Positions 1-7,600 of a DNA stretch of 7,600 nucleotides are shown one piece after another. The notes beneath the pieces are model-generated. The model worked only from the letters and a program-made list of their open reading frames with translations. It searched no databases and had not been told where the DNA came from. This DNA comes from a virus (Duplodnaviria; Heunggongvirae; Uroviricota; Caudoviricetes): positions 1-7,600 of IMG/VR virus record IMGVR_UViG_2529293138_000010. One strand, given 5' to 3'. A program made the translations under genes and the position numbers. How positions within the stretch are numbered: the stretch's first letter is position 1; every line of letters begins with the position of its first letter.

Positions 1-1242
1 ATGGCGAGAAAAACACCCCCATTAACCACGGTGCAGATCAAAGCAGCCAGACCAGCGGAAAAGGAATACACCCTACAGGACGGCGGAGGGCTTTTTCTCC
101 TGGTCAAGCCGTCTGGATCCAAACTCTGGCGATTTTCCTACTACCGACCATCGGACAAAAAAAGAATATTGCTGAGTTTTGGATCGCTTGATGATGTTTC
201 CCTGGCTGATGCCAGAAAACGCCGTAGCGAGTACAGAGCGTTAATCAGTGCCGGAAGTGACCCGCAGGGCCATGAGAAGAAAAAACGAGAGGCAGAGGCC
301 CGAAGACAAAGGAACACGTTCGAAAATGTGGCGGCGGCATGGTACCAGGTGAAAATCAGCCAGAATCTGGCCCCCAACACTATTAAAGACATCTGGCGAT
401 CGCTGGATAAATATGTATTCCCGTTCATCGGAAACACGCCAGTAGACACCCTCACCGCCCGAAGATTCGTTGAGGTGATGACCCCCATCAAGGAGCGCGG
501 CAACCTGGAAACACTCAAGCGGGTTTTACAGCGCGTTAATGAGGTAATGGATTACGCCGCCAACAGTGGGCTGATTGATACCAATCCGGCTATGAATGTG
601 CGTAAGGCGTTCCCCTCCCCTGTAAAAAAACATATGCCAACAATCCGCCCCGAACAGCTGCCGGAGCTTATGCAGGCTTTATCAGTATCGGCAACAGAAC
701 GGCAGACCAGACTACTTATTGAGTGGCAGCTACTGACCGTAACCCGTCCCGTTGAAGCATCGTCGGCACGCTGGGAAGAAATCGACATAGAGGCGCAACG
801 CTGGACCATACCAGCCGGACGCATGAAGATGCGCCGCGACCACGTTATCCCGCTTTGTGACCAGGCTATGGCAGTGCTGGAGGCTATGAAACCAATCAGC
901 CACCACCGCGATTACGTTTTCCCGAGCCTGAAAGACCCACGGCAGCCGATGAACAGCCAGACCGCTAACGCAGCATTACGGCGCATGGGATTCGCTGGCG
1001 TGCTGGTGTCTCATGGATTACGCGCCATATTCAGCACAGCAGCGAACGAGGAAGGATTCGAGCCGGACGTAATAGAGGCGGCACTTGCCCACGTCGACAC
1101 CAACGAAGTGAGACGGGCATACAACAGGAGCAACTACATAGAAAAACGCGTGGTGCTTATGCGCTGGTGGGGCGAATTTGTCGAGGCTGCGGCGACGGGC
1201 GTAACCCTCGCCAGTGGTAAAAGGGGTATCCGAGCCGTGTAG
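1..1242 (+). CDS. int: Tyrosine-type site-specific integrase (P4/CP4-57-like prophage integrase family)
   Basis: 413-aa ORF from ATG at position 1. C-terminal catalytic signatures HGLRAIFST (box II H-x-x-R) and LAHVDTNEVRRAYNRSNY (His/Tyr nucleophile region) are typical of phage integrases; N-terminus resembles P4-type integrases. Confidence 0.9.
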   Translation: MARKTPPLTTVQIKAARPAEKEYTLQDGGGLFLLVKPSGSKLWRFSYYRPSDKKRILLSFGSLDDVSLADARKRRSEYRALISAGSDPQGHEKKKREAEARRQRNTFENVAAAWYQVKISQNLAPNTIKDIWRSLDKYVFPFIGNTPVDTLTARRFVEVMTPIKERGNLETLKRVLQRVNEVMDYAANSGLIDTNPAMNVRKAFPSPVKKHMPTIRPEQLPELMQALSVSATERQTRLLIEWQLLTVTRPVEASSARWEEIDIEAQRWTIPAGRMKMRRDHVIPLCDQAMAVLEAMKPISHHRDYVFPSLKDPRQPMNSQTANAALRRMGFAGVLVSHGLRAIFSTAANEEGFEPDVIEAALAHVDTNEVRRAYNRSNYIEKRVVLMRWWGEFVEAAATGVTLASGKRGIRAV

Positions 1243-1286
1243 CTGTACAGAAAACCAGTAAAAACTACGAAAATAATGCAAAACCG

Positions 1287-1296
1287 TTGTATAATT
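1287..1296 (+). promoter_or_regulatory. Possible extended -10-like element (TTGTATAATT) upstream of small ORF
   Basis: TATAAT at 1290-1295 preceded by TG at 1288-1289; no convincing -35. Sequence-only prediction. Confidence 0.3.
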
Positions 1297-1331
1297 GCAC
1301 TAAATTTAACGGCGCCAGCGAGGTCATGAGC

Positions 1332-1562
1332 ATGAACACATCACCCGCGACCCATTTCGATGGTTTACAACTGGCCCTGATGGTCCAACATGAATTTTGG
1401 TCAACCTACGATCCAGAGGACAGAGCGACGGCCCCAACAAAAAAAGACGTTGTTGAGTTTCTGGTATCCCGTGGGGCATCCAGGAATATGGCTGAAAGTA
1501 TCGACAGGGTAGTTCGTCCGGCAACCATGAAGACCGGAGGCAGACCAAAAAAATGGCGATAA
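1332..1562 (+). CDS. Hypothetical small protein (76 aa, basic C-terminus GGRPKKWR)
   Basis: ATG at 1332 with GAGG (1320-1323) 8 nt upstream; the ORF-track frame opens at TTG 1287. Followed directly by an intrinsic terminator. No family recognised. Confidence 0.45.
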   Translation: MNTSPATHFDGLQLALMVQHEFWSTYDPEDRATAPTKKDVVEFLVSRGASRNMAESIDRVVRPATMKTGGRPKKWR

Positions 1563-1572
1563 CAATCCTCAA

Positions 1573-1596
1573 AGCGGCAGAAATGCCGCTTTTTTT
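1573..1596 (+). terminator. Rho-independent terminator
   Basis: Stem AGCGGCA (1573-1579), loop GAAA, TGCCGCT (1584-1590), then T-run to 1596. Confidence 0.7.
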
Positions 1597-1625
1597 ATAA
1601 ATCCCTTTCAAATCACCAACATAAA

Positions 1626-1652
1626 AAACGTTTCTAACCGTTTAAAAACGGT
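1626..1652. promoter_or_regulatory. Palindromic elements upstream of alpA (possible operator or recombinase-binding sites)
   Basis: AAACGTTT palindrome (1626-1633) and perfect palindrome ACCGTTT-AA-AAACGGT (1637-1652); direct repeats CACCGGAAT/CACCGGATT at 1695-1713 lie further downstream. Confidence 0.3.
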
Positions 1653-1729
1653 GGGAACTGTTTTTACCAATATCCGATGATTTACCGTATTTCTCACCGG
1701 AATACACCGGATTAATGAGGTAAATCACG

Positions 1730-1936
1730 ATGGAAGCAATCAAAAAAGTCATCTTTCGCCAGGAAGTAAAAAAACTTATCCACATCAAGGCAAACAGCAC
1801 GCTTCAAAGCATGATCAACGCCGGAGAATTTCCGCAGGGTTTTCGCGTTGGTTTACGCCGTCGCGGATGGTATGAGGAAGACGTAATCGCATGGATGAAA
1901 GAACGTGAGCAGGAAGCACGCGAAACGGCTGCGTAA
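1730..1936 (+). CDS. alpA: AlpA-family phage transcriptional regulator / excisionase-like HTH protein
   Basis: 68-aa ORF with GAGG (1717-1720) 9 nt upstream of ATG. Sequence LIHIKANSTLQSMINAGEFPQGFRVGLRRRGWYEEDVIAWM matches the AlpA/Vis HTH pattern (…FP…G…GW.E.E…W). Confidence 0.85.
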   Translation: MEAIKKVIFRQEVKKLIHIKANSTLQSMINAGEFPQGFRVGLRRRGWYEEDVIAWMKEREQEARETAA

Positions 1937-1966
1937 TGGTGTGAGGCATAACACGATGAACATAAC

Positions 1967-1991
1967 AAAAAGCGCCCCGTTACCGGAGCGC
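1967..1991 (-). terminator. Candidate intrinsic terminator for leftward transcription (convergent with alpA)
   Basis: On the minus strand: GCGCTCC / GGTAAC loop / GGGGCGC (7-bp stem with one G-U pair) followed by TTTTT (plus-strand A-run 1967-1971). Confidence 0.4.
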
Positions 1992-2081
1992 CCTTGCGAA
2001 CAATTAACCTGCTGCGAAAAAATTGGATCAGTGCAGGGGAATTATATCAACTGTGTGAAGAAGCGCCACAATTGCCGGATA

Positions 2082-2115
2082 ACAGGCAAAACAAAGGCCA
2101 CCTGCTACGGTGGCC
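2082..2115 (-). terminator. Candidate intrinsic terminator of the leftward small-gene operon
   Basis: Perfect 7-bp stem GGCCACC (2096-2102) / GGTGGCC (2109-2115) with 6-nt loop; on the minus strand it is followed by TTTGTTTTG (2095-2087). Confidence 0.5.
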
Positions 2116-2218
2116 ATTCGACACAAGCTACACGTTATCCCCAACGCATGAGCATAACCAACAATGCCACATTTGCGGCTGGTGGGCAAAGCGTAACCGG
2201 AAAAAAATTCCGGTGGGG

Positions 2219-2344
2219 CTATTCCTGTTCTTTGTCCTTGCGTCGCTGGCGACGTTTGATCTCATGCAGAATTTTTTCAGGTAAGAATCCTGCTGATTTA
2301 TTTTCTGGTAGCAATGGTTTGTTATCCGTCTGCTTCCTGGTCAT
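2219..2344 (-). CDS. Hypothetical 41-aa peptide (MTRKQTDNKPLLPENKSAGFLPEKILHEIKRRQRRKDKEQE), basic C-terminus
   Basis: Not in the ORF track (below its length cut-off); found by manual reverse-complement translation. ATG at 2344 lies 3 nt after the stop of the upstream 60-aa ORF (TGAtgtATG), with an AAAGG SD-like motif 7 nt upstream; same frame as the two upstream minus ORFs. A CCGGAA/TTCCGG hairpin follows the stop. Confidence 0.3.
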   Translation of the reverse strand: MTRKQTDNKPLLPENKSAGFLPEKILHEIKRRQRRKDKEQE

Positions 2345-2347
2345 ACA

Positions 2348-2530
2348 TCAACCTTTTGGTTCGTTACGTTTCCATACCTGCAATGGGCGCGTTTTCCTGT
2401 ACTCTTTTAGGAATATCTCAAGAGCAAACGCACACGGTGCGAATCTTTCTGATTCATGCTCGAGCGCCATATTTTCGTGCTCTCTTTTCGTTTTTTGCGA
2501 TGGTGTATTGGTTGATTCTTTGTTGGTCAT
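2348..2530 (-). CDS. Hypothetical 60-aa protein
   Basis: Minus-strand ORF starting 58 nt downstream of the RHH-like gene, with AGGAA 7 nt upstream of ATG. No family recognised. Confidence 0.35.
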   Translation of the reverse strand: MTNKESTNTPSQKTKREHENMALEHESERFAPCAFALEIFLKEYRKTRPLQVWKRNEPKG

Positions 2531-2587
2531 TGTGTGTTCCTGTAAAGCAATGCGCCGGAGTTCCTCACACCACGGCGCTGATAGTGA

Positions 2588-2893
2588 TTATTCTGATTCT
2601 TTGGCCTTGCGGCGCTGGAGTTCTTCACGCGCGACGGTGACGAGTTGCCCGATCTCCTCGGCTGCTTTGACACCGATTTTTTCCACCTGCGCCAGTGCAT
2701 CGAGCGAAGAAACCAGGGGATTTTCTCCGCTTCCTTCTGCCTGGCGGCGGGCGATTTCACCGCGAACGGCTGTAATCACGAAAGCGGCTATTGTTTCCCC
2801 TTCCGTTTTCGAATTTTCCATTTCCTCGATTACATCATGGGGGAAGCGGATATTTTTCATTTGCGATCTGCTGTTGATGTTTCCTGTTGCCAT
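2588..2893 (-). CDS. Putative ribbon-helix-helix (Arc/MetJ/CopG-like) DNA-binding regulator; candidate island repressor
   Basis: 101-aa ORF diverging from the palindrome-rich intergenic region. N-terminal KNIRFPHDVIEEMENSKTEGETIAAFVITAV fits a beta-strand/helix/helix RHH pattern; acidic/basic helical C-terminus. True start may be the internal MKNIRF. Confidence 0.55.
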   Translation of the reverse strand: MATGNINSRSQMKNIRFPHDVIEEMENSKTEGETIAAFVITAVRGEIARRQAEGSGENPLVSSLDALAQVEKIGVKAAEEIGQLVTVAREELQRRKAKESE

Positions 2894-2910
2894 CAGAATG
2901 TCCGGTTATT

Positions 2911-3018
2911 TTGAGGTGTGTACACATTACACCAAAAGGTGTGTTGATAAAACACTTGACACTGTAGCACACTTAAATCTAATCTGTATATACACCAATT
3001 ATTGTAGTGTATATACAG
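2911..3018. promoter_or_regulatory. Divergent control region with multiple operators
   Basis: Palindrome TGTGTACACA (2917-2926); inverted repeat ACACC-AAAA-GGTGT (2929-2942); repeated ACAC/GTGT motifs; perfect 12-bp inverted repeat CTGTATATACAC (2984-2995) / GTGTATATACAG (3007-3018) separated by 11 bp. Confidence 0.55.
2956..2985 (+). promoter_or_regulatory. Predicted sigma70 promoter for the rightward (replication) operon
   Basis: Consensus -35 TTGACA (2956-2961), 18-bp spacer, -10 TAATCT (2980-2985). The 12-bp inverted repeat begins at the 3' edge of the -10 and would cover the start site. Confidence 0.45.
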
Positions 3019-3252
3019 CAACGCCCCGCAGTGGTGGTACACATGCAGGGCGTCTAACCACCAACGATAACGAGAGTATCGAGGTAGCTATGAGAAATCA
3101 TACCACACACCCGCAAGGGCGGGACTCGCACAACCTGAATAAAGCGGGTATGAAAAACCTGTTGATCGCCACTGCCAGCCAGGGCTATGATTCATGTGCA
3201 CCTCATAAAACGGGTGCCGGGATTACCACCCCGCTGATGTCCAGGGCGATAC

Positions 3253-3275
3253 AGACGCCGCACGCGTCTTTTTTT
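3253..3275 (+). terminator. Intrinsic terminator / attenuator inside the rightward leader
   Basis: Stem AGACGC (3253-3258), loop CGCAC, GCGTCT (3264-3269), followed by a T7 run (3269-3275); about 280 nt downstream of the predicted promoter and 165 nt upstream of the first strong RBS. Confidence 0.55.
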
Positions 3276-3440
3276 GTATCGGCGCACACGCACACCTTAA
3301 CAATGGTGGGCTGTACGGGGCCGACTTCGGTCTGGCTGGTCACCTTGGACGCCAGTTGTGGTAACCCTGTACAGTCCACCGCCAGCGAGATTACCACCTC
3401 CGGCGGTGGGGATATCCCAACGTCTAAGGAGGCTGCCAAC

Positions 3441-3632
3441 ATGGCTACTACCCCTACCCTTATACATTCTCAAACTGCCTTTATCTGGCGCTTTATTGCC
3501 TTTGGCGCGTCAGAATCCCAAATCATCAACGTAACCGCCTGGACAGAACGCGAAGCGCGTAACCATTGCCCGTCAGGTTGTGTCGCTGTATTTGCCGCCC
3601 GTATTCGTCAGGGGAAAACCTATGCACAATAA
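3441..3632 (+). CDS. Small protein (63 aa), possibly Icd-like (tentative, from memory of similar islands)
   Basis: Strong SD AAGGAGG (3426-3432) 8 nt upstream of ATG 3441. Sequence MATTPTLIHSQTAFIWRFIAFG…TAWTEREARNHCPSGCVAVFAARI. The frame is open upstream to 3090, so a longer form cannot be excluded. Confidence 0.5.
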   Translation: MATTPTLIHSQTAFIWRFIAFGASESQIINVTAWTEREARNHCPSGCVAVFAARIRQGKTYAQ

Positions 3633-4086
3633 AACCACACCGGACGCAGCAGCTGCCGAGCTCACTACGCTGATGCACGCGCTGATTGATATTTCTGTTA
3701 TTGCTGACAGGGCGCATAAGCACGCCACCAGTGAAACAGAATATGCATGGGCTTTCGTTCCTCATTCGCTGGCGGTTATGCAACTTAGTGCGGATATGGC
3801 GCTGAATGAGGCCAAAGCCATCCTGATTGCTGATTGTGAAAATGGGGGGGTTATGCGTGATGATCGTTTTAATTCCCTGAAACAGGAATTTTCCGGCGTA
3901 TCTGATGATGCGGCTGATGCGCTTTCGTCAATGCCAGAACTTATTAGAGCGGCTTTTTTCTTACTTTCCACGAAAGAATATAAATCAACGGGACTTGATG
4001 TACTGAATATCGCCGCCGATTATGCGGAATATGTGGCAGAGGCGCGTTACAGAAGAAAATTTCCTGAGGATGTAAGCCATGCGTGA
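3622..4086 (+). CDS. Hypothetical protein (154 aa)
   Basis: ATG 3622 with GGGGA 6 nt upstream, overlapping the previous stop by 11 nt; the ORF-track frame opens at 3580. No family recognised. Confidence 0.55.
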   Translation: MHNKTTPDAAAAELTTLMHALIDISVIADRAHKHATSETEYAWAFVPHSLAVMQLSADMALNEAKAILIADCENGGVMRDDRFNSLKQEFSGVSDDAADALSSMPELIRAAFFLLSTKEYKSTGLDVLNIAADYAEYVAEARYRRKFPEDVSHA

Positions 4087-4312
4087 TATTTACATTGAAA
4101 CAATAGACCGCGCATTTAGTGCCCTTGCTTACGCTGAAGGTATGTACGAAATATTGCAAATGTGGCTGGAAACATTTGACGATAATGAGCGTGATGTAAA
4201 GAAGGCGCGGATTATTAAATCACTGATAACTCTCCTTGAACATGTAATAACAGAGTTGCAGGAAATAGACTTATTGCACGACAGATATAACGAACAGCAC
4301 ACCGGAGAATAA
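4079..4312 (+). CDS. Hypothetical protein (77 aa, acidic)
   Basis: ATG overlaps the upstream stop (ATGCGTGA at 4079-4086), suggesting translational coupling. Confidence 0.55.
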   Translation: MRDIYIETIDRAFSALAYAEGMYEILQMWLETFDDNERDVKKARIIKSLITLLEHVITELQEIDLLHDRYNEQHTGE

Positions 4313-4317
4313 AAATA

Positions 4318-4605
4318 ATGAAACTTAAATATTCTGGCTTAACTGCCAGCGGCACCGCTCGGCCTGAAATCCGTAACGGCGATATTTACCGCGATAAATA
4401 TGGCGGCATGGTAACGATTAAAGGCGTGGCAGAACGGCGCATCACCTACCGCCGTGAAGGTTACGAATATGATTGCGTGATGCCTGTTTATCAATTCCGG
4501 CGTGATTTCACGCTGGTAGGCCAGCGTAAAGCCGTTAATCAGAAACGTGCAACAGGTTATATCCGCAAAATCCGTGAAATGCTGGTCGCAGGGGGTAAGA
4601 AATGA
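4318..4605 (+). CDS. Hypothetical small basic protein (95 aa), possibly DUF4222-like
   Basis: GGAG (4304-4307) upstream of ATG 4318; its stop overlaps the next start (ATGA at 4602-4605). Motifs YRDKYGGMVTIKGV…ITYRREGYEYDCVMP. Family assignment is from memory only. Confidence 0.55.
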   Translation: MKLKYSGLTASGTARPEIRNGDIYRDKYGGMVTIKGVAERRITYRREGYEYDCVMPVYQFRRDFTLVGQRKAVNQKRATGYIRKIREMLVAGGKK

Positions 4606-5999
4606 AACTGGCACCGAACGTAAAACGATTACCGAAAGATAAATACACCGATGCGATTATTTTTGCGGGTATTGATGCTCACTCATTCGCAGAGCATTAC
4701 ATCATTGCACAGGCCAAAAAAGCAGGCGATCCAGTCCCTCCCGTTTATCTGGGGCGTTATCAGTTAAGCGAACTGGATAACCTCCAGATTGTTGATGATG
4801 GGCGATACAGGGCGACGGTGATACGCGCCGGAAATATTGAAGAGCCGCAGCTGTTAACCATCGCCACGAAACTGGCGATCGCCGGAGTCCAGGAGGCGCG
4901 GCTACTTTCTGAAAATTTCGAATTGCTGGAGGAATGGAGCGACCAGCTTCCACGGCTTAGGGAGACATGGGAACGCGGGGAAAGCCTGAGCAACCAGCGA
5001 AAAACCACGCTACCAATGAGCGTGGGATCTGCCGGATACGACACACAACTTGATTACGTGGTTAAGGGAATTATTCCGGCTGTATCGCTTTGCAGCATAT
5101 ACGGGGCGAGCGGTTCCTATAAATCATTCCTTGCCGGATCGTGGGCGTGTCACGTTTCCACTGGCCGCCAGTGGGGATGCCGCAGGGTGGCGCATGGCGC
5201 TGTTCTCTATGTGGTTGGTGAAGGCGGTATCGGCGTTCCTCGTCGTGTAAAAGCCTGGGAGGTTGTGCACGGTGAGCAGGTGAAAAATCTGTATCTGGTA
5301 AACCGTCCCATCTTTCCGGCTGCCCCGCTTGATGTTGATGAAATGGTTATCGCTGCCCGTCAGGTGGAACGGGAAACGGGTAAACCTGTACGCATGATTA
5401 TTCTGGATACGCTGGCGCGGTGCTTTGGTGGCAATGATGAAAATGATTCCCGTGATATGGGGGCGTTTATCCGTGGGTGTGACGAACTGAAACGACGCAC
5501 AGGGGCCACGGTGCTGGTGGTTCACCATTCCGGCAAGGATGAAACAAAGGGAGCGCGTGGTTCCAGTGCATTTCGTGCTTCGCTGGATGCTGAATACCGG
5601 ATACGCAGGGAGGACGCAGGAAGCGAAGCCCTGGTTATCTCATGCACCAAAATGAAGGATGCGGAGGAACTCAAAGAAGCCGCATATGACTTACGCGTGG
5701 TGGAGCTTTTTACCGACGCTGACGGGGAGTTAATCACGTCGCTGGTGGTGGTGGATAAGCCGCGCCCTCCCGTTGAACTGGAGCGCATCGAGGAGGCTGG
5801 CAACAAGACGGAAAACCATACCGCGCTATGGGGATGCATACGTTCACGCACACAGAACGGAGACAAGTGCACGATCCCGCTGTTACGTGATGACATGAAA
5901 AAACTGGGGTACGAAATGAAAAACTTCCGGCGCTGGCTGTACAAGCTGGAAAAAGACAGGGTTATTCGTATCGATGGGGATGATGTAGCGCCGCTATAA
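4602..5999 (+). CDS. Replication-associated P-loop ATPase (RecA-fold, RepA/DnaB-like AAA_25-type helicase)
   Basis: 465-aa ORF with Walker A-like YGASGSYKSF, Walker B-like VRMIILDTLAR and downstream VLVVHHSGKD, typical of RecA-fold replicative helicases; iteron-like repeats lie immediately 3'. Confidence 0.8.
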   Translation: MKLAPNVKRLPKDKYTDAIIFAGIDAHSFAEHYIIAQAKKAGDPVPPVYLGRYQLSELDNLQIVDDGRYRATVIRAGNIEEPQLLTIATKLAIAGVQEARLLSENFELLEEWSDQLPRLRETWERGESLSNQRKTTLPMSVGSAGYDTQLDYVVKGIIPAVSLCSIYGASGSYKSFLAGSWACHVSTGRQWGCRRVAHGAVLYVVGEGGIGVPRRVKAWEVVHGEQVKNLYLVNRPIFPAAPLDVDEMVIAARQVERETGKPVRMIILDTLARCFGGNDENDSRDMGAFIRGCDELKRRTGATVLVVHHSGKDETKGARGSSAFRASLDAEYRIRREDAGSEALVISCTKMKDAEELKEAAYDLRVVELFTDADGELITSLVVVDKPRPPVELERIEEAGNKTENHTALWGCIRSRTQNGDKCTIPLLRDDMKKLGYEMKNFRRWLYKLEKDRVIRIDGDDVAPL

Positions 6000-6188
6000 A
6001 GTGAGGTGCAAAAGCGAGGGGTATAGAAGGAGGGCCAAAATTAGACCGCTACCCCTCACTTTTCGGCCTGTATACATCCTCAAAAGTGAGGGGCAAAAAA
6101 ATACTTATGAAACACACACATAGAAAAAGCGAAAATCTCAAGCGAGACGGAGCCAGACACTTTAAAAAGTGAGGCGAAAAAGTGAGAG
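5998..6188. repeat. Iteron-like repeat array (candidate origin of replication)
   Basis: AAAGTGAG(G) copies at 5998-6006, 6083-6093, 6166-6174 and 6179-6186; inverted copy at 6052-6062; variants AAAGCGAGGG at 6011-6020 and 6141-6150 region. The inverted pair CCCCTCACTTTT (6052-6063) / AAAAGTGAGGGG (6082-6093) can form a 12-bp stem. Confidence 0.5.
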
Positions 6189-6198
6189 TTTGCGAGAA

Positions 6199-6450
6199 AT
6201 GAACAAAATGCGTAGAGACAGAACAGAGCCAAAATATAAAGCGTTAGACATGACAGAGCACGCTTTAAAGGTGGCAATCAGAACGATAGACCGCCACGCG
6301 GGGGAAGGATACGCGAAGGAACATCCCGACCTGATAAGCGCATTCATGACCACAGCAGCGGCAAACTTTGCCACGCTGACAGAACGGGAGATTGCCGAAG
6401 CGGAACAGGTAACAACCATCAACGTTAAAACCGGAGAGCAGACAGCATGA
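6199..6450 (+). CDS. Hypothetical protein (83 aa)
   Basis: ORF-track frame 6169..6450 opens at a GTG inside the repeat array; first ATG is at 6199. Its stop overlaps the ssb start (ATGA at 6447-6450). Start is uncertain. Confidence 0.45.
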   Translation: MNKMRRDRTEPKYKALDMTEHALKVAIRTIDRHAGEGYAKEHPDLISAFMTTAAANFATLTEREIAEAEQVTTINVKTGEQTA

Positions 6451-6869
6451 CAGCACAGATAGCGGCTTACGGACGGCTGGTGGCTGACCCGCAGTTAAAG
6501 ACCACCAGCAAGGGTACACAAATGACGATGGCGAGTATGGCGGTCCCCCTTCCGTGCAGCCAGGCAGATGACGGAGCGGCGACGATGTGGTTATCCGTCA
6601 TGGCGTTTGGCAGACAGGCCGACGCACTGGCAAAACACCACAAAGGCGAACTGGTGAGCGTGGCGGGTAACATGCAGGTAAGCCAGTGGACAGGCCAGAA
6701 CGGCGAAACGCGGCAGGGCTGGCAGGTTATCGCAGACAGCGTAATCAGTGCGAGAACGGCGCGACCTGGCGGCAAAAAAGGCCAGCAGGGGCAGGCTACT
6801 GACGCACTGAACAGGGCAAAACAACAGGCTGGTAACGATGATCCGTATGGGGATAACATACCGTTTTAA
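6447..6869 (+). CDS. ssb: Single-stranded DNA-binding protein (SSB, OB-fold)
   Basis: Aligns by eye with E. coli SSB: GRLVADPQL…, MWLSVMAFGRQADALAKHHKGELVSVAGNMQVSQWTGQNGETRQGWQVIADSV (W/FG/KG/W-x-D-x-G-x-R pattern). Gly/Gln-rich linker and C-terminal tail DDPYGDNIPF ending in IPF. GGAGAG SD 8 nt upstream. Confidence 0.8.
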   Translation: MTAQIAAYGRLVADPQLKTTSKGTQMTMASMAVPLPCSQADDGAATMWLSVMAFGRQADALAKHHKGELVSVAGNMQVSQWTGQNGETRQGWQVIADSVISARTARPGGKKGQQGQATDALNRAKQQAGNDDPYGDNIPF

Positions 6870-6883
6870 GCAACGAGTAACAG

Positions 6884-6907
6884 AAGCCGGAGAAGTCCGG
6901 CTTTTTT
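6884..6907 (+). terminator. Rho-independent terminator ending the replication operon
   Basis: Stem GCCGGA (6886-6891), loop GAAG, TCCGGC (6896-6901), followed by T6 (6902-6907). Confidence 0.75.
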
Positions 6908-6917
6908 ATGCCCCAAA

Positions 6918-6953
6918 AAGCCCGATAAGGTCAGAGGGTCTTATCGGGCTTTT
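6918..6953. terminator. Second hairpin, possible bidirectional terminator
   Basis: 12-bp perfect stem AAGCCCGATAAG (6918-6929) / CTTATCGGGCTT (6940-6951) with 10-nt loop; A-run upstream, T-run downstream. Confidence 0.5.
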
Positions 6954-7031
6954 GCATATGAGGTTTTTTTGGTGCGCTGACACACATGATCGGGATAATA
7001 ATTTCATAATTTGCAACATAACTCAATATTA

Positions 7032-7059
7032 TTGCACAAAATGCAATCCTGATTATAAT
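7032..7059 (+). promoter_or_regulatory. Predicted promoter of the capsid module
   Basis: -35 TTGCAC (7032-7037), 16-bp spacer, consensus -10 TATAAT (7054-7059), in an AT-rich region with repeated TTGCA motifs (7011, 7032, 7042). Confidence 0.45.
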
Positions 7060-7064
7060 CATGA

Positions 7065-7080
7065 CTGGATGAACATCCAG
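7065..7080. promoter_or_regulatory. Perfect inverted repeat CTGGATG-AA-CATCCAG over the predicted start site (candidate operator)
   Basis: 7-bp arms separated by 2 bp, beginning 6 bp after the -10. Confidence 0.3.
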
Positions 7081-7115
7081 TTATGATTTTTTAAGTCGAA
7101 GAGGAATTTCTTACT

Positions 7116-7322
7116 ATGGCTGAAGAGAAAAAAGGCGGTGTTTCGGTGTACATAAGCTCCGACATCGTGGAGGCGCTCAAGGAACGCCACCAGCAGAACG
7201 TAAAAGCAGGCATTGCGGCAGGACTTGATCCGCTGGCGATGGTTGAGCCGTCAACAGGCTGGCAGGTGCGCGCCTATTTACGTGCGGCGCTGGGCATGAA
7301 TCAGACTCATGGGGGTGAATAA
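7116..7322 (+). CDS. Hypothetical small protein (68 aa), first gene of the capsid module
   Basis: GAGGAA SD (7101-7106) 9 nt upstream of ATG; its stop overlaps the capsid gene start (TAATG). No family recognised. Confidence 0.6.
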   Translation: MAEEKKGGVSVYISSDIVEALKERHQQNVKAGIAAGLDPLAMVEPSTGWQVRAYLRAALGMNQTHGGE

Positions 7323-7600
7323 TGGCAGGCAAAGCAACGGCACTTACCACTAATCAGCTTTTCACGTACATGAATCGCGGGGATATTGCGGAATTTAAAT
7401 TCAGTCCGCTGTTTACCACGCTGTTTTTCACGAACGTGGCGACATTCAGCACCCAAAACATCATGCTGGATACCCTGGACATTGAAGAAGTCACTATGTC
7501 GGCGTTTTGTTCTCCTATGGTTGGCAGCCAGGTACAGCGCGATAAAGGGTACGAAACCAGCACAATCAAACCTGGCTACATGAAGCCAAAGCACGAAATC
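7322..7600 (+). CDS. Major capsid protein, lambda gpE-like family (N-terminal 93 codons; truncated by window end)
   Basis: Manual translation MAGKATALTTNQLFTYMNRGDIAEFKFSPLFTTLFFTNVATF…KPGYMKPKHEI matches the lambda gpE N-terminus (…EQKFKFDPLFLRLFF… …PGYVKPKHEV) as recalled from memory. Confidence 0.8.
   Translation, partial: MAGKATALTTNQLFTYMNRGDIAEFKFSPLFTTLFFTNVATFSTQNIMLDTLDIEEVTMSAFCSPMVGSQVQRDKGYETSTIKPGYMKPKHEI

Follow-up and report, generated by a model that had tools for sequence, protein, structure and literature searches.

A lambda gpE-like capsid gene in what is very probably a classical Gram-negative PICI at the proL locus of Escherichia coli

The question raised by this locus is whether a satellite-like island that carries a gene for a major capsid protein also builds its own capsids. 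The window, by which we mean the whole stretch of 7,600 nucleotides analysed, is the terminal part of an E. coli contig (L006:5400-12999), and the sequence breaks off inside the capsid gene because the contig ends at that point. Our analysis indicates that the window is very probably the left 70% to three quarters of a classical Gram-negative PICI of the EcCICFT073 type, inserted at the 3' end of proL in E. coli.

The gene for tRNA-Pro(GGG) (proL) lies ∼220 bp upstream of the window start, confirming the tRNA attachment site that had been suggested for the left flank, and the host flank of the island shows 99.3% identity to K-12. When attB, the empty K-12 site, is compared with attL and attR of the fully mapped relative L001, a clean insertion at the tRNA 3' end is seen, measuring 10.7 kb from attL to attR. 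The integrase, which has 95.6% identity to that of the proL island of E. coli STEC2017-197, defines integration at proL tRNA-Pro(GGG). Contigs with the exact integrase or RepA gene at the proL site all break inside the island, and parts of the window are matched by 2011 of 5426 complete E. coli genomes.

The features of the window are listed in Table 1. The gene order is the same as in EcCICFT073, the prototype Gram-negative PICI, for which c1499/c1500, cos sites, AlpA and full-size packaging have been described (PMC6092414), and Gram-negative PICIs follow a four-zone plan (PMC10111431). All elements listed in the first-pass annotation are present, and the layout is of the PICI type, with int, alpA, a regulatory zone, a replicon with its origin and a late zone. 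However, two components are not orthologous to those of EcCICFT073. The integrases share only 24% identity, and the primase position is occupied by the RepA-type ATPase, whose relatives carry the PGAP name 'helicase RepA family' and whose N-terminal 126 aa show 46% identity to the N-terminus of the EcCICFT073 primase-family protein. Membership of the family rests on the architecture and the other modules.

Table 1. Features of the window, with the evidence for each
Feature	Position	Strand	Evidence
Tyrosine integrase, P4 or PICI type, 413 aa	1..1242	+	Pfam Phage_integrase 8.7e-29, Phage_int_M, Arm-DNA-bind_3
orf91	1287..1562	+	72% identity to same-position ORF of L001; gene callers favour 76-aa version
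Intrinsic terminator 3' of orf91	1571-1592	+	Hairpin -14.2 kcal/mol, z -5.1
AlpA-like HTH regulator or excision factor, 68 aa	1730..1936	+	Pfam Phage_AlpA 18.1 bits, below cut-off 21
Two terminator-like hairpins ending leftward operon	1968..2115	-	Terminator scan: 1995-1968, 2115-2096
Leftward three-gene operon	2219..2893	-	YlcI/YnfO-like, orf60, orf41
orf41	2219-2344	-	Third gene of leftward operon
orf60	2348-2530	-	66% identity to EcCICFT073 counterpart
YlcI/YnfO-like gene, 101 aa	2588-2893	-	NCBIfam YlcI_YnfO_N 8.2e-18
Putative divergent control region	2894..3089	.	14-bp-arm inverted repeat 2984-3018 (scan)
Ash/Eta-like frame enclosing immunity RNAs	3090..3632	+	Pfam Phage_ASH 9.1e-11
Sigma-70-like promoter 5' of IsrK-like RNA	3162-3191	+	Promoter scan
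IsrK-like leader RNA with own terminator (seqA or a1/b1 target analogue)	3198..3274	+	Rfam RF01394
C4/CI-type antisense immunity RNA	3299..3386	+	Rfam RF01695, full-length match
Icd-like ORF, own SD, 3' part of Ash/Eta-like frame	3441-3632	+	NCBIfam phage_ICD_like 1.5e-16
orf154	3622-4086	+	Conserved PICI early gene
orf77	4079-4312	+	Conserved PICI early gene; 66% identity to EcCICFT073
DUF4222	4318-4605	+	Conserved PICI early gene; Pfam DUF4222 3.1e-25; 65% identity to EcCICFT073
RepA-type replicative ATPase or helicase, 465 aa	4602..5999	+	Pfam AAA_25 3e-42
Replication origin	5998..6186	.	Six AAAGYGAG iterons, both orientations, around A+T-rich core
orf83 (93 aa with upstream GTG at 6169)	6199..6450	+	phrog_1231; gene call in L006
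SSB, 140 aa	6447..6869	+	Pfam SSB 3.3e-16
Tandem terminator hairpins closing replication operon	6878..6953	+	Folding energy, conservation
Putative late-zone control region	6996..7115	+	Promoter-like hexamers and palindrome
orf68	7116..7322	+	phrog_3255 (function unassigned) 1.3e-37; 94% identity to same-position EcCICFT073 ORF
Lambda gpE-family major capsid homologue, first 93 codons (c1499 orthologue)	7322..7600	+	Identity to c1499 and L002

The AlpA-like protein shows 94% identity to the co-located HTH gene of L001, also from E. coli, whereas its alignment with EcCICFT073 AlpA, the role of which is known from work on that island (PMC6092414), is limited to a 25-aa stretch. Judged from the sequence, and with a Pfam score that is sub-threshold, we regard the gene as an allelic variant of EcCICFT073 AlpA. 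The region 3622..4605 matches phrog_2512 and phrog_2196 and has 65-79% identity to its EcCICFT073 counterparts, and the SSB has 72%. No family match was obtained for orf91 in Pfam, NCBIfam and phrog searches. In EcCICFT073 an origin 3' of the rep gene has been functionally shown (PMC6092414), and here all six copies of AAAGYGAG fall in 5998-6186, with 0.4 expected window-wide and none of 200 shuffles reaching six; repeat families D1, I1, I2 and I5 are present in the same region. The adjoining orf83 is conserved at 84-100% identity in relatives and is translationally coupled to ssb.

A double terminator and a promoter had been described ahead of the capsid gene, and two strong hairpins and promoter-like sites were recovered there. 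The two hairpins after ssb, at 6878-6908 (-16 kcal/mol, z -3.9, then a U run) and 6916-6953 (-23.1 kcal/mol, z -5.0), are kept in relatives including EcCICFT073, and nearly all columns of 6996..7115 are identical across five islands, again including EcCICFT073. The promoter-like sites are consensus matches only, one from the scan (7003-7032) and one found by eye (TTGCAC-16-TATAAT, 7032-7059). The palindrome at 7057-7088 (15-bp arms, then a T run; -19.4 kcal/mol, z -4.7) may serve as an operator or as an attenuator. On the other strand, the leftward operon matches phrog_6522 and phrog_21027, both without assigned function. Its first gene is indeed divergent, as had been proposed, but the RHH type assigned to it is unproven, the match to PSK_trans_fac being weak (0.0025). 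The inverted repeat in the divergent control region is a possible operator.

The early region carries a pair of RNAs. The IsrK-like leader (65 bits, gathering score 50; E 1.5e-12) and the C4-type RNA (69.6 bits, gathering score 45; E 2.1e-12) both exceed their gathering scores, and together they form an immunity RNA pair of the P1-c4/P4-CI type upstream of an Icd-like ORF. On our reading of the sequence, the leader contains UUACCAC (3223-3229) and GUCCAGGG (3239-3246), complementary to unpaired C4 segments, and a second target pair lies downstream, with UUACCAC at 3391-3397 and GUCUAAGG at 3422-3429, overlapping the SD of the Icd-like ORF. Matches to C4 and isrK in PICIs have been noted previously (PMC10111431). 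EcCICFT073 is without both RNAs, and the RNA-immunity step is therefore not family-wide. The first-pass annotation did not include these RNAs (3198-3386), the Icd-like ORF, DUF4222 or the coincidence of the window end with the contig end.

The start codon of the capsid gene overlaps the stop codon of orf68 (TAATG). On Phage_cap_E the fragment scores 20.5 bits, below the cut-off of 22.9, and the full-length sibling in L002 (351 aa), which has 98.9% identity to the fragment, matches at 1.6e-51; the claim that the island encodes its own gpE-like capsid protein is upheld. The sibling shows 42% identity to lambda gpE, and the best phage relative of the capsid is that of Gifsy-1 (46.5%), with no phage higher among 50,697 records. 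Identity to EcCICFT073 c1499 is 92.5% for the fragment (N-terminus) and 95.7% for the L002 sibling. The capsid and decoration genes show 96% identity across islands with unrelated integrases, with dN/dS ∼0.09-0.10 for the former and 0.08-0.15 for the latter. These comparisons mark the gpE-like and gpD-like genes, for capsid and decoration respectively, as a conserved lineage that is specific to satellites and subject to purifying selection. What did not hold is the view that a satellite with its own capsid gene is uncommon and the lineage undescribed. In EcCICFT073 the capsid gene c1499 and its decoration neighbour c1500 were reported in 2018 (PMC6092414), and 21 of the 29 reference Gram-negative PICIs carry a capsid gene (PMC10111431). 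SatelliteFinder found a capsid morphogenesis gene to be typical of enterobacterial PICIs, and E. coli is the source of nearly all elements in which the five PICI core components occur together (PMC10085698); published surveys treat the capsid gene as a core PICI marker. The lambda-like capsid gene is what the literature documents as typical of the family, and does not signal a new capsid-building lineage.

The right arm of the window island lies beyond the contig end, and it is therefore from relatives that we infer the island to lack portal, protease and TerL. The right arms of eight of these (L001, L002-L005, L009, L011 and L012) were examined, three of which share the proL att site, with an integrase 96% identical where measured (L001). 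They hold the capsid and decoration genes, in some cases a Nu3-like ORF, an Rpp or Nu1-like gene (RppA is c1503; PMC6739421), one small ORF, attR and host genes. Two copies of the exact lambda cosN (GGGCGGCGACCT), in inverted arrangement, flank the Rpp or Nu1-like gene. Genes for portal, protease, connectors, HNH, TerL, tail and lysis were not found in the eight arms.

It could be argued that the satellite's coat, cement and, where present, Nu3-like scaffold join the portal and protease of the helper to form satellite-specific capsids, possibly of smaller size, which would place the island between classical PICIs and capsid-forming PICIs (cf-PICIs). The coat and cement genes have been kept (dN/dS ∼0.1) at 96% identity despite the unrelated integrases, c1501, an ORF of 137 aa that follows the decoration gene, is a homologue of Nu3-like scaffolds, and capsid homologues drive or accompany small capsids in SaPIbov5 (Ccm) and PmCI172 (PMC5052747, PMC6092414). 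The EcCICFT073 transfer tests, moreover, used c1501::tetA or c1499::cat, placing the marker inside the capsid module. However, EcCICFT073 DNA from lambda particles was all phage-sized, and deletion of either c1499 or c1500 left transfer and interference unchanged (PMC6092414). In L002-L005, the relatives closest to the window, the Nu3-like ORF is a ∼26-codon remnant whilst coat and cement are intact, and the three genes therefore form no obligate unit. We consider such a hybrid unlikely.

Much less probable still is a cf-PICI or undescribed kin, which would assemble small capsids of its own and take nothing but tails from the helper, in line with the suggestion of the first-pass annotation. 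The island does have its own capsid protein, under purifying selection and distinct from all phage capsids in the collection, and its own right end lies beyond the sequenced contig. Yet the defining gene set of cf-PICIs comprises capsid, protease, portal and head-tail connectors together with HNH, TerS and TerL, in ∼15 kb (10.1101/2022.09.08.507074; PMC10085698), whereas the rightward search for portal, protease and connectors that had been recommended found none in the eight relatives, the three at the same att site included, and L001 measures 10.7 kb. In addition, the capsid is of the lambda-E type, with 92-96% identity to that of EcCICFT073, an island packaged in full-size helper heads (PMC6092414). 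The cf-PICI reading is refuted for all sequenced relatives, and from their right arms it follows that the full island, of ∼10.7 kb, is very probably a classical PICI and not a cf-PICI.

A P4-like satellite is equally hard to credit. The P4-type integrase at a tRNA, the AlpA/Vis-like gene, and the Ash/Eta-like frame with its CI/C4-type RNA, IsrK/seqA-like leader and Icd-like ORF all recall P4, but neither the window nor the relatives contain a psu-delta-sid operon or an alpha primase-helicase. The late zone is of the lambda type (cosN, Nu1-like or Rpp, E- and D-like genes) and not P2-directed, and E. coli PICIs and P4 have been argued to be separate families sharing only distant homology in Int, AlpA and Pri (PMC6092414). 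Finally, a decaying lambdoid prophage that kept its capsid gene by chance would account for the lambda-family parts (capsid, decoration, Nu3-like and Nu1-like genes, cosN), but is most improbable given a compact, discrete element with clean att junctions, a non-lambdoid replicon, AlpA and P4-type integrase in fixed PICI order, late genes that have no more than 46.5% identity to any phage yet 96% among islands and are under purifying selection, the same architecture in relatives at two att sites and window parts in so many complete genomes, and the experimental mobilisability of EcCICFT073 (PMC6092414).

For the classical PICI that we favour, a life cycle can be proposed. In quiescence, a constitutive promoter would produce the IsrK-like leader and the C4/CI-type antisense RNA, which would pair with two target pairs, in the leader and at the ribosome-binding site of the Icd-like ORF, and so hold the orf154, orf77, DUF4222, repA and ssb operon off, as in P1 immI and P4 CI immunity; the divergent YlcI/YnfO-like operon may add to this. 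On induction a lambdoid helper phage would turn on alpA and AlpA activate the island, as shown for EcCICFT073, where int is also required for excision; Int would act here at the CCAAA crossover at the tRNA 3' end. The island would then be replicated by its RepA-type helicase and SSB, starting at the iteron origin; ori function has been shown for EcCICFT073. The right-arm Rpp or Nu1-like protein would redirect the helper terminase to the island's lambda-type cos, and concatemers would enter full-size heads made by the helper, both steps having been shown for EcCICFT073. Because the island, judged by its relatives, is without portal, protease, connectors and TerL, the capsid genes are not a self-sufficient capsid kit. 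The gpE-like and gpD-like genes would instead be an accessory module for interaction with helper head proteins; that this module co-assembles with or competes against them in a helper-specific manner is a tentative proposal, to which we give somewhat less than even weight.

The window is a further copy of an already known kind of element, a Gram-negative PICI of the EcCICFT073 type, and belongs to a satellite family that has been characterised experimentally and catalogued in many E. coli genomes. EcCICFT073 itself, from E. coli CFT073, is the prototype of the Gram-negative PICIs (Fillol-Salom et al. 2018, PMC6092414; 2019, PMC6739421). The PICI-type layout proposed in the first-pass annotation is borne out, with an integrase, an AlpA-like gene, a RepA ATPase with iterons and an SSB in the EcCICFT073 gene order, and the element follows the four-zone plan described for Gram-negative PICIs (PMC10111431). 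The features are collected in the table.

Features of the satellite and of its sequenced relatives (positions are those of the window unless a contig is named)
Feature	Position	Remarks
Integrase	1-1242	all three domains of a P4/PICI-type tyrosine recombinase
AlpA-like HTH, 68 aa	1730-1936	Pfam Phage_AlpA sub-threshold, 18.1 vs 21 bits
Divergent gene	2588-2893	YlcI/YnfO-family protein
Ash/Eta-like frame	3090-3632	Pfam Phage_ASH; encloses both RNAs
Sigma-70-like promoter (predicted)	3162-3191	precedes IsrK and C4
IsrK-like RNA	3198-3274	Rfam, 65 bits vs gathering score 50
C4 antisense RNA	3299-3386	Rfam, 69.6 bits vs gathering score 45
Icd-like ORF	3441-3632	3' end of the Ash/Eta-like frame
RepA-type AAA_25 ATPase, 465 aa	4602-5999	
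SSB	6447-6869	
Two very stable hairpins	6878-6908 and 6916-6953	after the SSB gene
orf68	7116-7322	stop overlaps capsid start as TAATG
Capsid gene start	7322	93 visible codons, lambda gpE family; fragment just under Pfam cut-off
cosN pair, E. coli STEC2017-197 proL island	L001:20492 (+) / 21359 (-)	
cosN pair, sibling island between roxA and phoQ	L002:14254 / 15121	
cosN pair, EcCICFT073	L009:19559 / 20298	

The gene order matches that of EcCICFT073 from int to the late zone, with orthologues of orf60 (66% identity), orf77 (66%), DUF4222 (65%), orf83, SSB (72%) and orf68 (94%), an overall range of 65-94%, and a capsid protein 92-96% identical. In both elements the replication gene is followed by an iteron ori and ssb by a double terminator, the late control region is near-identical, and the window's relatives also share with EcCICFT073 a decoration gene, two inverted lambda cosN sites and a terminal small ORF. 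The two differ, however, in the integrase (24% identity), in the att site (the proL tRNA-Pro gene as against a roxA-phoQ intergenic site), in the AlpA allele, in the replication protein (a RepA-type helicase as against a primase-family protein), in the lack of a PerC gene in the window, and in the IsrK and C4 cassette, which in the window is inserted in the Icd/Ash region. In addition, the place of RppA in EcCICFT073 is taken in the window's closest relatives by a 180-aa Nu1-like TerS homologue. Modular allele swapping is documented in E. coli PICIs, among which four AlpA alleles are distinguished (PMC6092414), and this fits the differing integrase, AlpA and replicase.

The integrase is 96% identical to that of the proL island of E. 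coli STEC2017-197 (L001). The AlpA-like gene is recognised by its place and orientation downstream of int and by 94% identity to the corresponding HTH gene of the same island, and an RHH fold is plausible for the divergent gene. In the replication module, the RepA-type ATPase and SSB genes are accompanied by an iteron origin: six AAAGYGAG iterons, in both orientations, all lie within 5998-6186, directly after the ATPase stop, where 0.4 would be expected per window. The double terminator that had been placed before the late zone is indeed present as two very stable hairpins. Residues 1-126 of the RepA-type helicase (window 4602-4980) share 46% identity with the N-terminal end of the primase-family protein of EcCICFT073 (L009:14242-14634), while the remainder is unrelated; this points to a shared N-terminal domain fused to different replication enzymes.

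The window is identical over all 7600 bases to L006:5400-12999, which forms the terminal 7.6 kb of contig AFDZ01000018.1 in assembly GCA_000225205.2, and it stops 279 nt into the capsid gene because that contig ends there. The left flank (yejK, yejL, yejM) is 99.3% identical to E. coli K-12. A tRNA att site, which the first-pass annotation had suggested looking for on this side, was found: the 3' end of the tRNA-Pro(GGG) gene proL lies ~220 bp upstream of window base 1, and Int at the left end goes with site-specific insertion at a dedicated att site. A seed-12 repeat search gave no usable att repeats, and the junctions were resolved by comparison with the empty K-12 site. The K-12 attB (…CTCTCGTGCCGACCAAAAATCCC…), set against attL and attR of L001, shows a 10.7-kb element inserted cleanly, and the crossover maps to CCAAA at the 3' end of the tRNA. 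The attL sequence, …CTCTCGTGCCGACCAAATCGCCC…, is the same in L001 and in the window's contig, identical across the junction, and attR of L001 reads …ACTACTCTCGTGCCAAAAATCCC…. The block of identity in attP, CTCTCGTGCC, is short and contains the CCAAA crossover, and the attR of the window's island is expected to read …CTCTCGTGCCAAAAATCCC beside yejO. Just inside both ends, the motif AGTTATACG recurs as direct and inverted copies (L006:5310-5370, immediately upstream of the window; L001:11913-11971 and 22359-22385); these are probably arm-type Int-binding sites. In exact-protein look-ups, all contigs with the exact Int or RepA at the proL site break inside the island. The apparent cause is a sibling PICI (L007) in the same genome, whose DUF4222-to-capsid stretch is nearly identical.

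Since the right arm of the window's island lies beyond the contig, we used its relatives instead: the proL-site islands in three complete E. coli genomes (STEC2017-197, F2_407_2_2 and B771), a sibling island between roxA and phoQ in four assemblies, whose RepA-to-capsid region is 99-100% identical to the window, and CFT073, the carrier of EcCICFT073 itself. In all relatives the late zone consists of orf68, a 351-aa capsid gene and a 111-aa lambda-gpD-type decoration gene (Pfam HDPD), followed in some by a 137-aa ORF; RppA or the 180-aa Nu1-like protein, one small ORF and host DNA come next. An exact lambda cosN (GGGCGGCGACCT, with conserved flanks) occurs twice, inverted, with the Rpp or Nu1-like gene between the two copies, in agreement with the pair of cos sites described in EcCICFT073 (PMC6092414). 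The window has no lambda cosN, and the cosN sites of its island would lie beyond the contig end. The GGGCGGCGACCT cosN is also found in a lambdoid prophage of CFT073 (L008:29745).

One alternative, raised in the first-pass annotation, is that the island is a capsid-forming PICI or similar to one. The cf-PICIs, with the prototype EcCIEDL933, encode capsid, protease, portal and connectors together with HNH, TerS and TerL over ~15 kb, and form their own small capsids (Alqurainy et al., 10.1101/2022.09.08.507074). The left half with int, alpA and rep, a major capsid gene and the membership of its product in a satellite-specific clade are common to both groups, the window's capsid protein being of lambda gpE type. 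However, the EcCICFT073 type, at ~10.7 kb, has only E-like, D-like and sometimes Nu3-like genes plus one of Rpp or Nu1-like kind, and its prototype travels in heads of helper size. The right arms of the eight relatives (L001; the roxA-phoQ siblings L002-L005; EcCICFT073, L009; and the further relatives L011 and L012) lack genes for portal, protease, connector, TerL, tail or lysis, and head-tail adaptor or connector genes in their late zones were neither annotated nor detected by Pfam or PHROGs. HNH and TerL are likewise absent in all relatives, where only the Nu1-like small subunit or RppA occurs. Of the contents that the first-pass annotation had proposed to look for on the right, the lack of tail and lysis genes and a Nu1-like small terminase subunit (RppA in its place in others) were seen in the relatives, whereas portal, protease and connectors did not appear; judged from these relatives, a cf-PICI is rejected on the portal, protease, connector, HNH and TerL genes alike.

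The suggestion of an uncommon or undescribed lineage finds no support either, as the capsid gene is typical of enterobacterial PICIs (PMC10085698) and the visible fragment is 92.5% identical to c1499, the EcCICFT073 capsid gene. A satellite capsid gene is a published hallmark of the EcCICFT073-type family. In SatelliteFinder, EcCICFT073 is a PICI including the capsid marker; its account of enterobacterial PICIs treats a capsid morphogenesis gene as typical and forbids genes for portal, connector, tail and holin (PMC10085698), and the element fits this account. The 7.6-kb window contains no tail, lysis, portal or connector genes, and the size agrees with the ~10-15 kb of a PICI, the mapped L001 island being 10.7 kb and the last ~3 kb of the window's island, beyond the contig, being judged from relatives. 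For EcCICFT073, helper-dependent induction, replication and high-frequency transfer have been reported with lambda, phi80 and CFT073 prophage 4 (PMC6092414).

A P4-like satellite was likewise rejected. The integrase is of P4 type, and a CI-type immunity RNA with a seqA-like leader target is present, which is common to P4 but not P4-defining alone. In contrast to P4, the element is without sid, psu, delta and alpha, and its helpers are lambdoid rather than P2-like; no psu-delta-sid genes or domains were found in the window or its relatives, and the replication protein is only of the AAA_25 RepA type, not an alpha primase-helicase. A decaying prophage was considered and rejected. The EcCICFT073-type PICI also resembles helper-embedded PICIs such as 11capE (Tommasini et al. 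2023, PMC10111431) in its four zones (integration; Bro and immunity RNA; replication; late), its late-zone capsid gene and its C4 and isrK matches, but those elements lie inside prophage late genes, whereas the window's island occupies a chromosomal tRNA gene.

A P1-c4/P4-CI-type cassette at 3162-3632, consisting of promoter, IsrK-like leader, C4 and Icd-like ORF, had been overlooked in the first-pass annotation. Matches of the C4 and isrK profiles to Gram-negative PICIs have already been noted (PMC10111431). Read from the sequence, the unpaired C4 segments are CCUUGGAC (3343-3350) and GUGGUAA (3358-3364). A first pair of targets lies in the IsrK leader (UUACCAC at 3223-3229 and GUCCAGGG at 3239-3246) and a second just 3' of C4 (UUACCAC at 3391-3397 and GUCUAAGG at 3422-3429), where the GUCUAAGG target overlaps the Shine-Dalgarno sequence of the Icd-like ORF. 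C4-target pairing was judged by direct reading of these complementary heptamers and octamers. With RNAduplex, the energy of C4 against the putative targets was matched by only 2-8 of 300 mononucleotide shuffles, but the program unfolds the whole C4 stem, so that these energies say little about the pairing.

The arrangement is that of P4 CI and P1 immI (c4, icd, ant), with a C4/CI-family antisense RNA, an upstream leader target (IsrK/seqA), an Ash/Eta-like frame and a second target that covers the ribosome-binding site of the icd-like ORF. Unlike in those systems, the genes under RNA control would be the PICI replication operon, which the C4 RNA would hold silent while the island is integrated. 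An Rfam search of the EcCICFT073 regulatory region gave neither C4 nor IsrK, even at E up to 1, so that possession of the RNA cassette varies among family members; the EcCICFT073 Icd-like ORF aligns on both sides of the cassette insertion point.

The source assembly, GCA_000225205.2, carries two sibling PICIs, that of the window at proL (L006) and another between roxA and phoQ (L007). Their int, alpA and regulatory zones differ, and the proteins of the DUF4222-RepA-SSB-capsid stretch share 96-100% identity; the two contigs break off at one and the same position in the capsid gene. The C4 RNAs of the two islands are 1 nt apart with identical recognition segments, and the matching segments suggest that the islands are probably co-immune. 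L007 has, in addition, a second, different C4 copy and a c4-a1b1 target match.

The island's own lambda gpE-like capsid gene, proposed from the 93 visible codons, is corroborated by a full-length sibling protein (98.9% identical to the fragment), which matches Phage_cap_E at 1.6e-51 and is 95.7% identical to c1499. The gene thus represents the capsid-morphogenesis gene of the PICI late zone. With lambda gpE the satellite capsid protein shares 42% identity and with the capsid protein of a CFT073 lambdoid prophage (at icd) 45%, and against 50,697 phage records the maximum identity was 46.5% (best match Gifsy-1). Between islands of unrelated integrase its identity is 96%, at a dN/dS of ~0.09-0.10; for the decoration gene, dN/dS is 0.08-0.15. 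Judged by these comparisons, the capsid gene is a maintained satellite-specific lineage, neither a recent capture nor decaying.

The 137-aa ORF after the decoration gene (L001:20018-20431; c1501 in EcCICFT073, L009:19084-19497), which lies outside the window, is a Nu3-like scaffold homologue. It aligns to positions 494-567 of the 583-position PHROG 'head maturation protease' profile and is 37% identical to residues 416-493 of the gpC homologue of a CFT073 prophage. It thus resembles the Nu3-like C-terminal tail of the lambdoid gpC/S49 protease gene, without the S49 domain, and in phages it matches only the Nu3/scaffold region of phage-21 and lambda-like genomes. The literature searched contains no mention of a Nu3-like identity for c1501, which is unannotated in the supplement of PMC6092414.

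The coat and decoration genes are 96% conserved and under purifying selection, yet their deletion is without phenotype: on removal of c1499 or of the decoration gene c1500, lambda interference and transfer were unchanged, and particle DNA was phage-sized (PMC6092414). In SaPIbov5 (Ccm) and the Pasteurella element PmCI172, a late-zone homologue of the helper major capsid protein is associated with small capsids (PMC5052747, PMC6092414); the EcCICFT073 lineage likewise has such a homologue, but only full-size packaging and no capsid-gene phenotype have been seen there. It is conceivable, though we consider it improbable, that the gpE-like coat and gpD-like cement, with the Nu3-like protein in many islands, form a partial shell kit which co-assembles with the portal and protease of some helpers into satellite-adapted, possibly smaller capsids. 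The published EcCICFT073 transfer tests used islands marked c1501::tetA and c1499::cat; these markers lie inside the module, which leaves some room for an undetected structural role, and hybrid shells could have been missed for this reason. In the islands closest to the window (L002-L005), however, the Nu3-like ORF is a ~26-codon remnant while coat and cement are intact, which argues against an obligate three-gene unit. Such a kit, if it existed, would stand between classical PICIs and cf-PICIs as an evolutionary intermediate. The module might, for example, remodel capsids when particular helpers are present, interfere with phages other than helpers, or serve as a decoy for defences that sense capsids, and knowing its role would fill a gap in how satellites of lambdoid phages exploit or resist their helpers.

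Upstream of orf68, ~120 bp (6996-7115) are nearly invariant in five islands including EcCICFT073, conserved beyond the flanking genes. A promoter-like TTGCAC-16-TATAAT (7032-7059) overlaps a palindrome with 15-bp arms (7057-7088), which is followed by a T run. The palindrome could be a late-promoter operator, or an attenuator if transcription begins at the upstream site at 7003-7032.

A 575-codon frame at 1905-3632 was rejected as a gene, as it runs antisense through three conserved minus-strand genes and across two RNA genes. Family support is confined to its last parts, Ash-like from 3090 and Icd-like from 3441. One gene caller made a 251-aa 'Phage_ASH' protein from part of this artefact, and most of the Pfam Ash match (residues 36-126 of the 3090-3632 frame) coincides with the DNA encoding IsrK and C4. 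Between the YlcI/YnfO-like gene and the Ash/Icd frame lies an intergenic inverted repeat with 14-bp arms (2984-3018, CTGTATATACAC…GTGTATATACAG), which may be an operator; at the matching place EcCICFT073 has a different, direct repeat, two copies of GTGGGCCACACCT.
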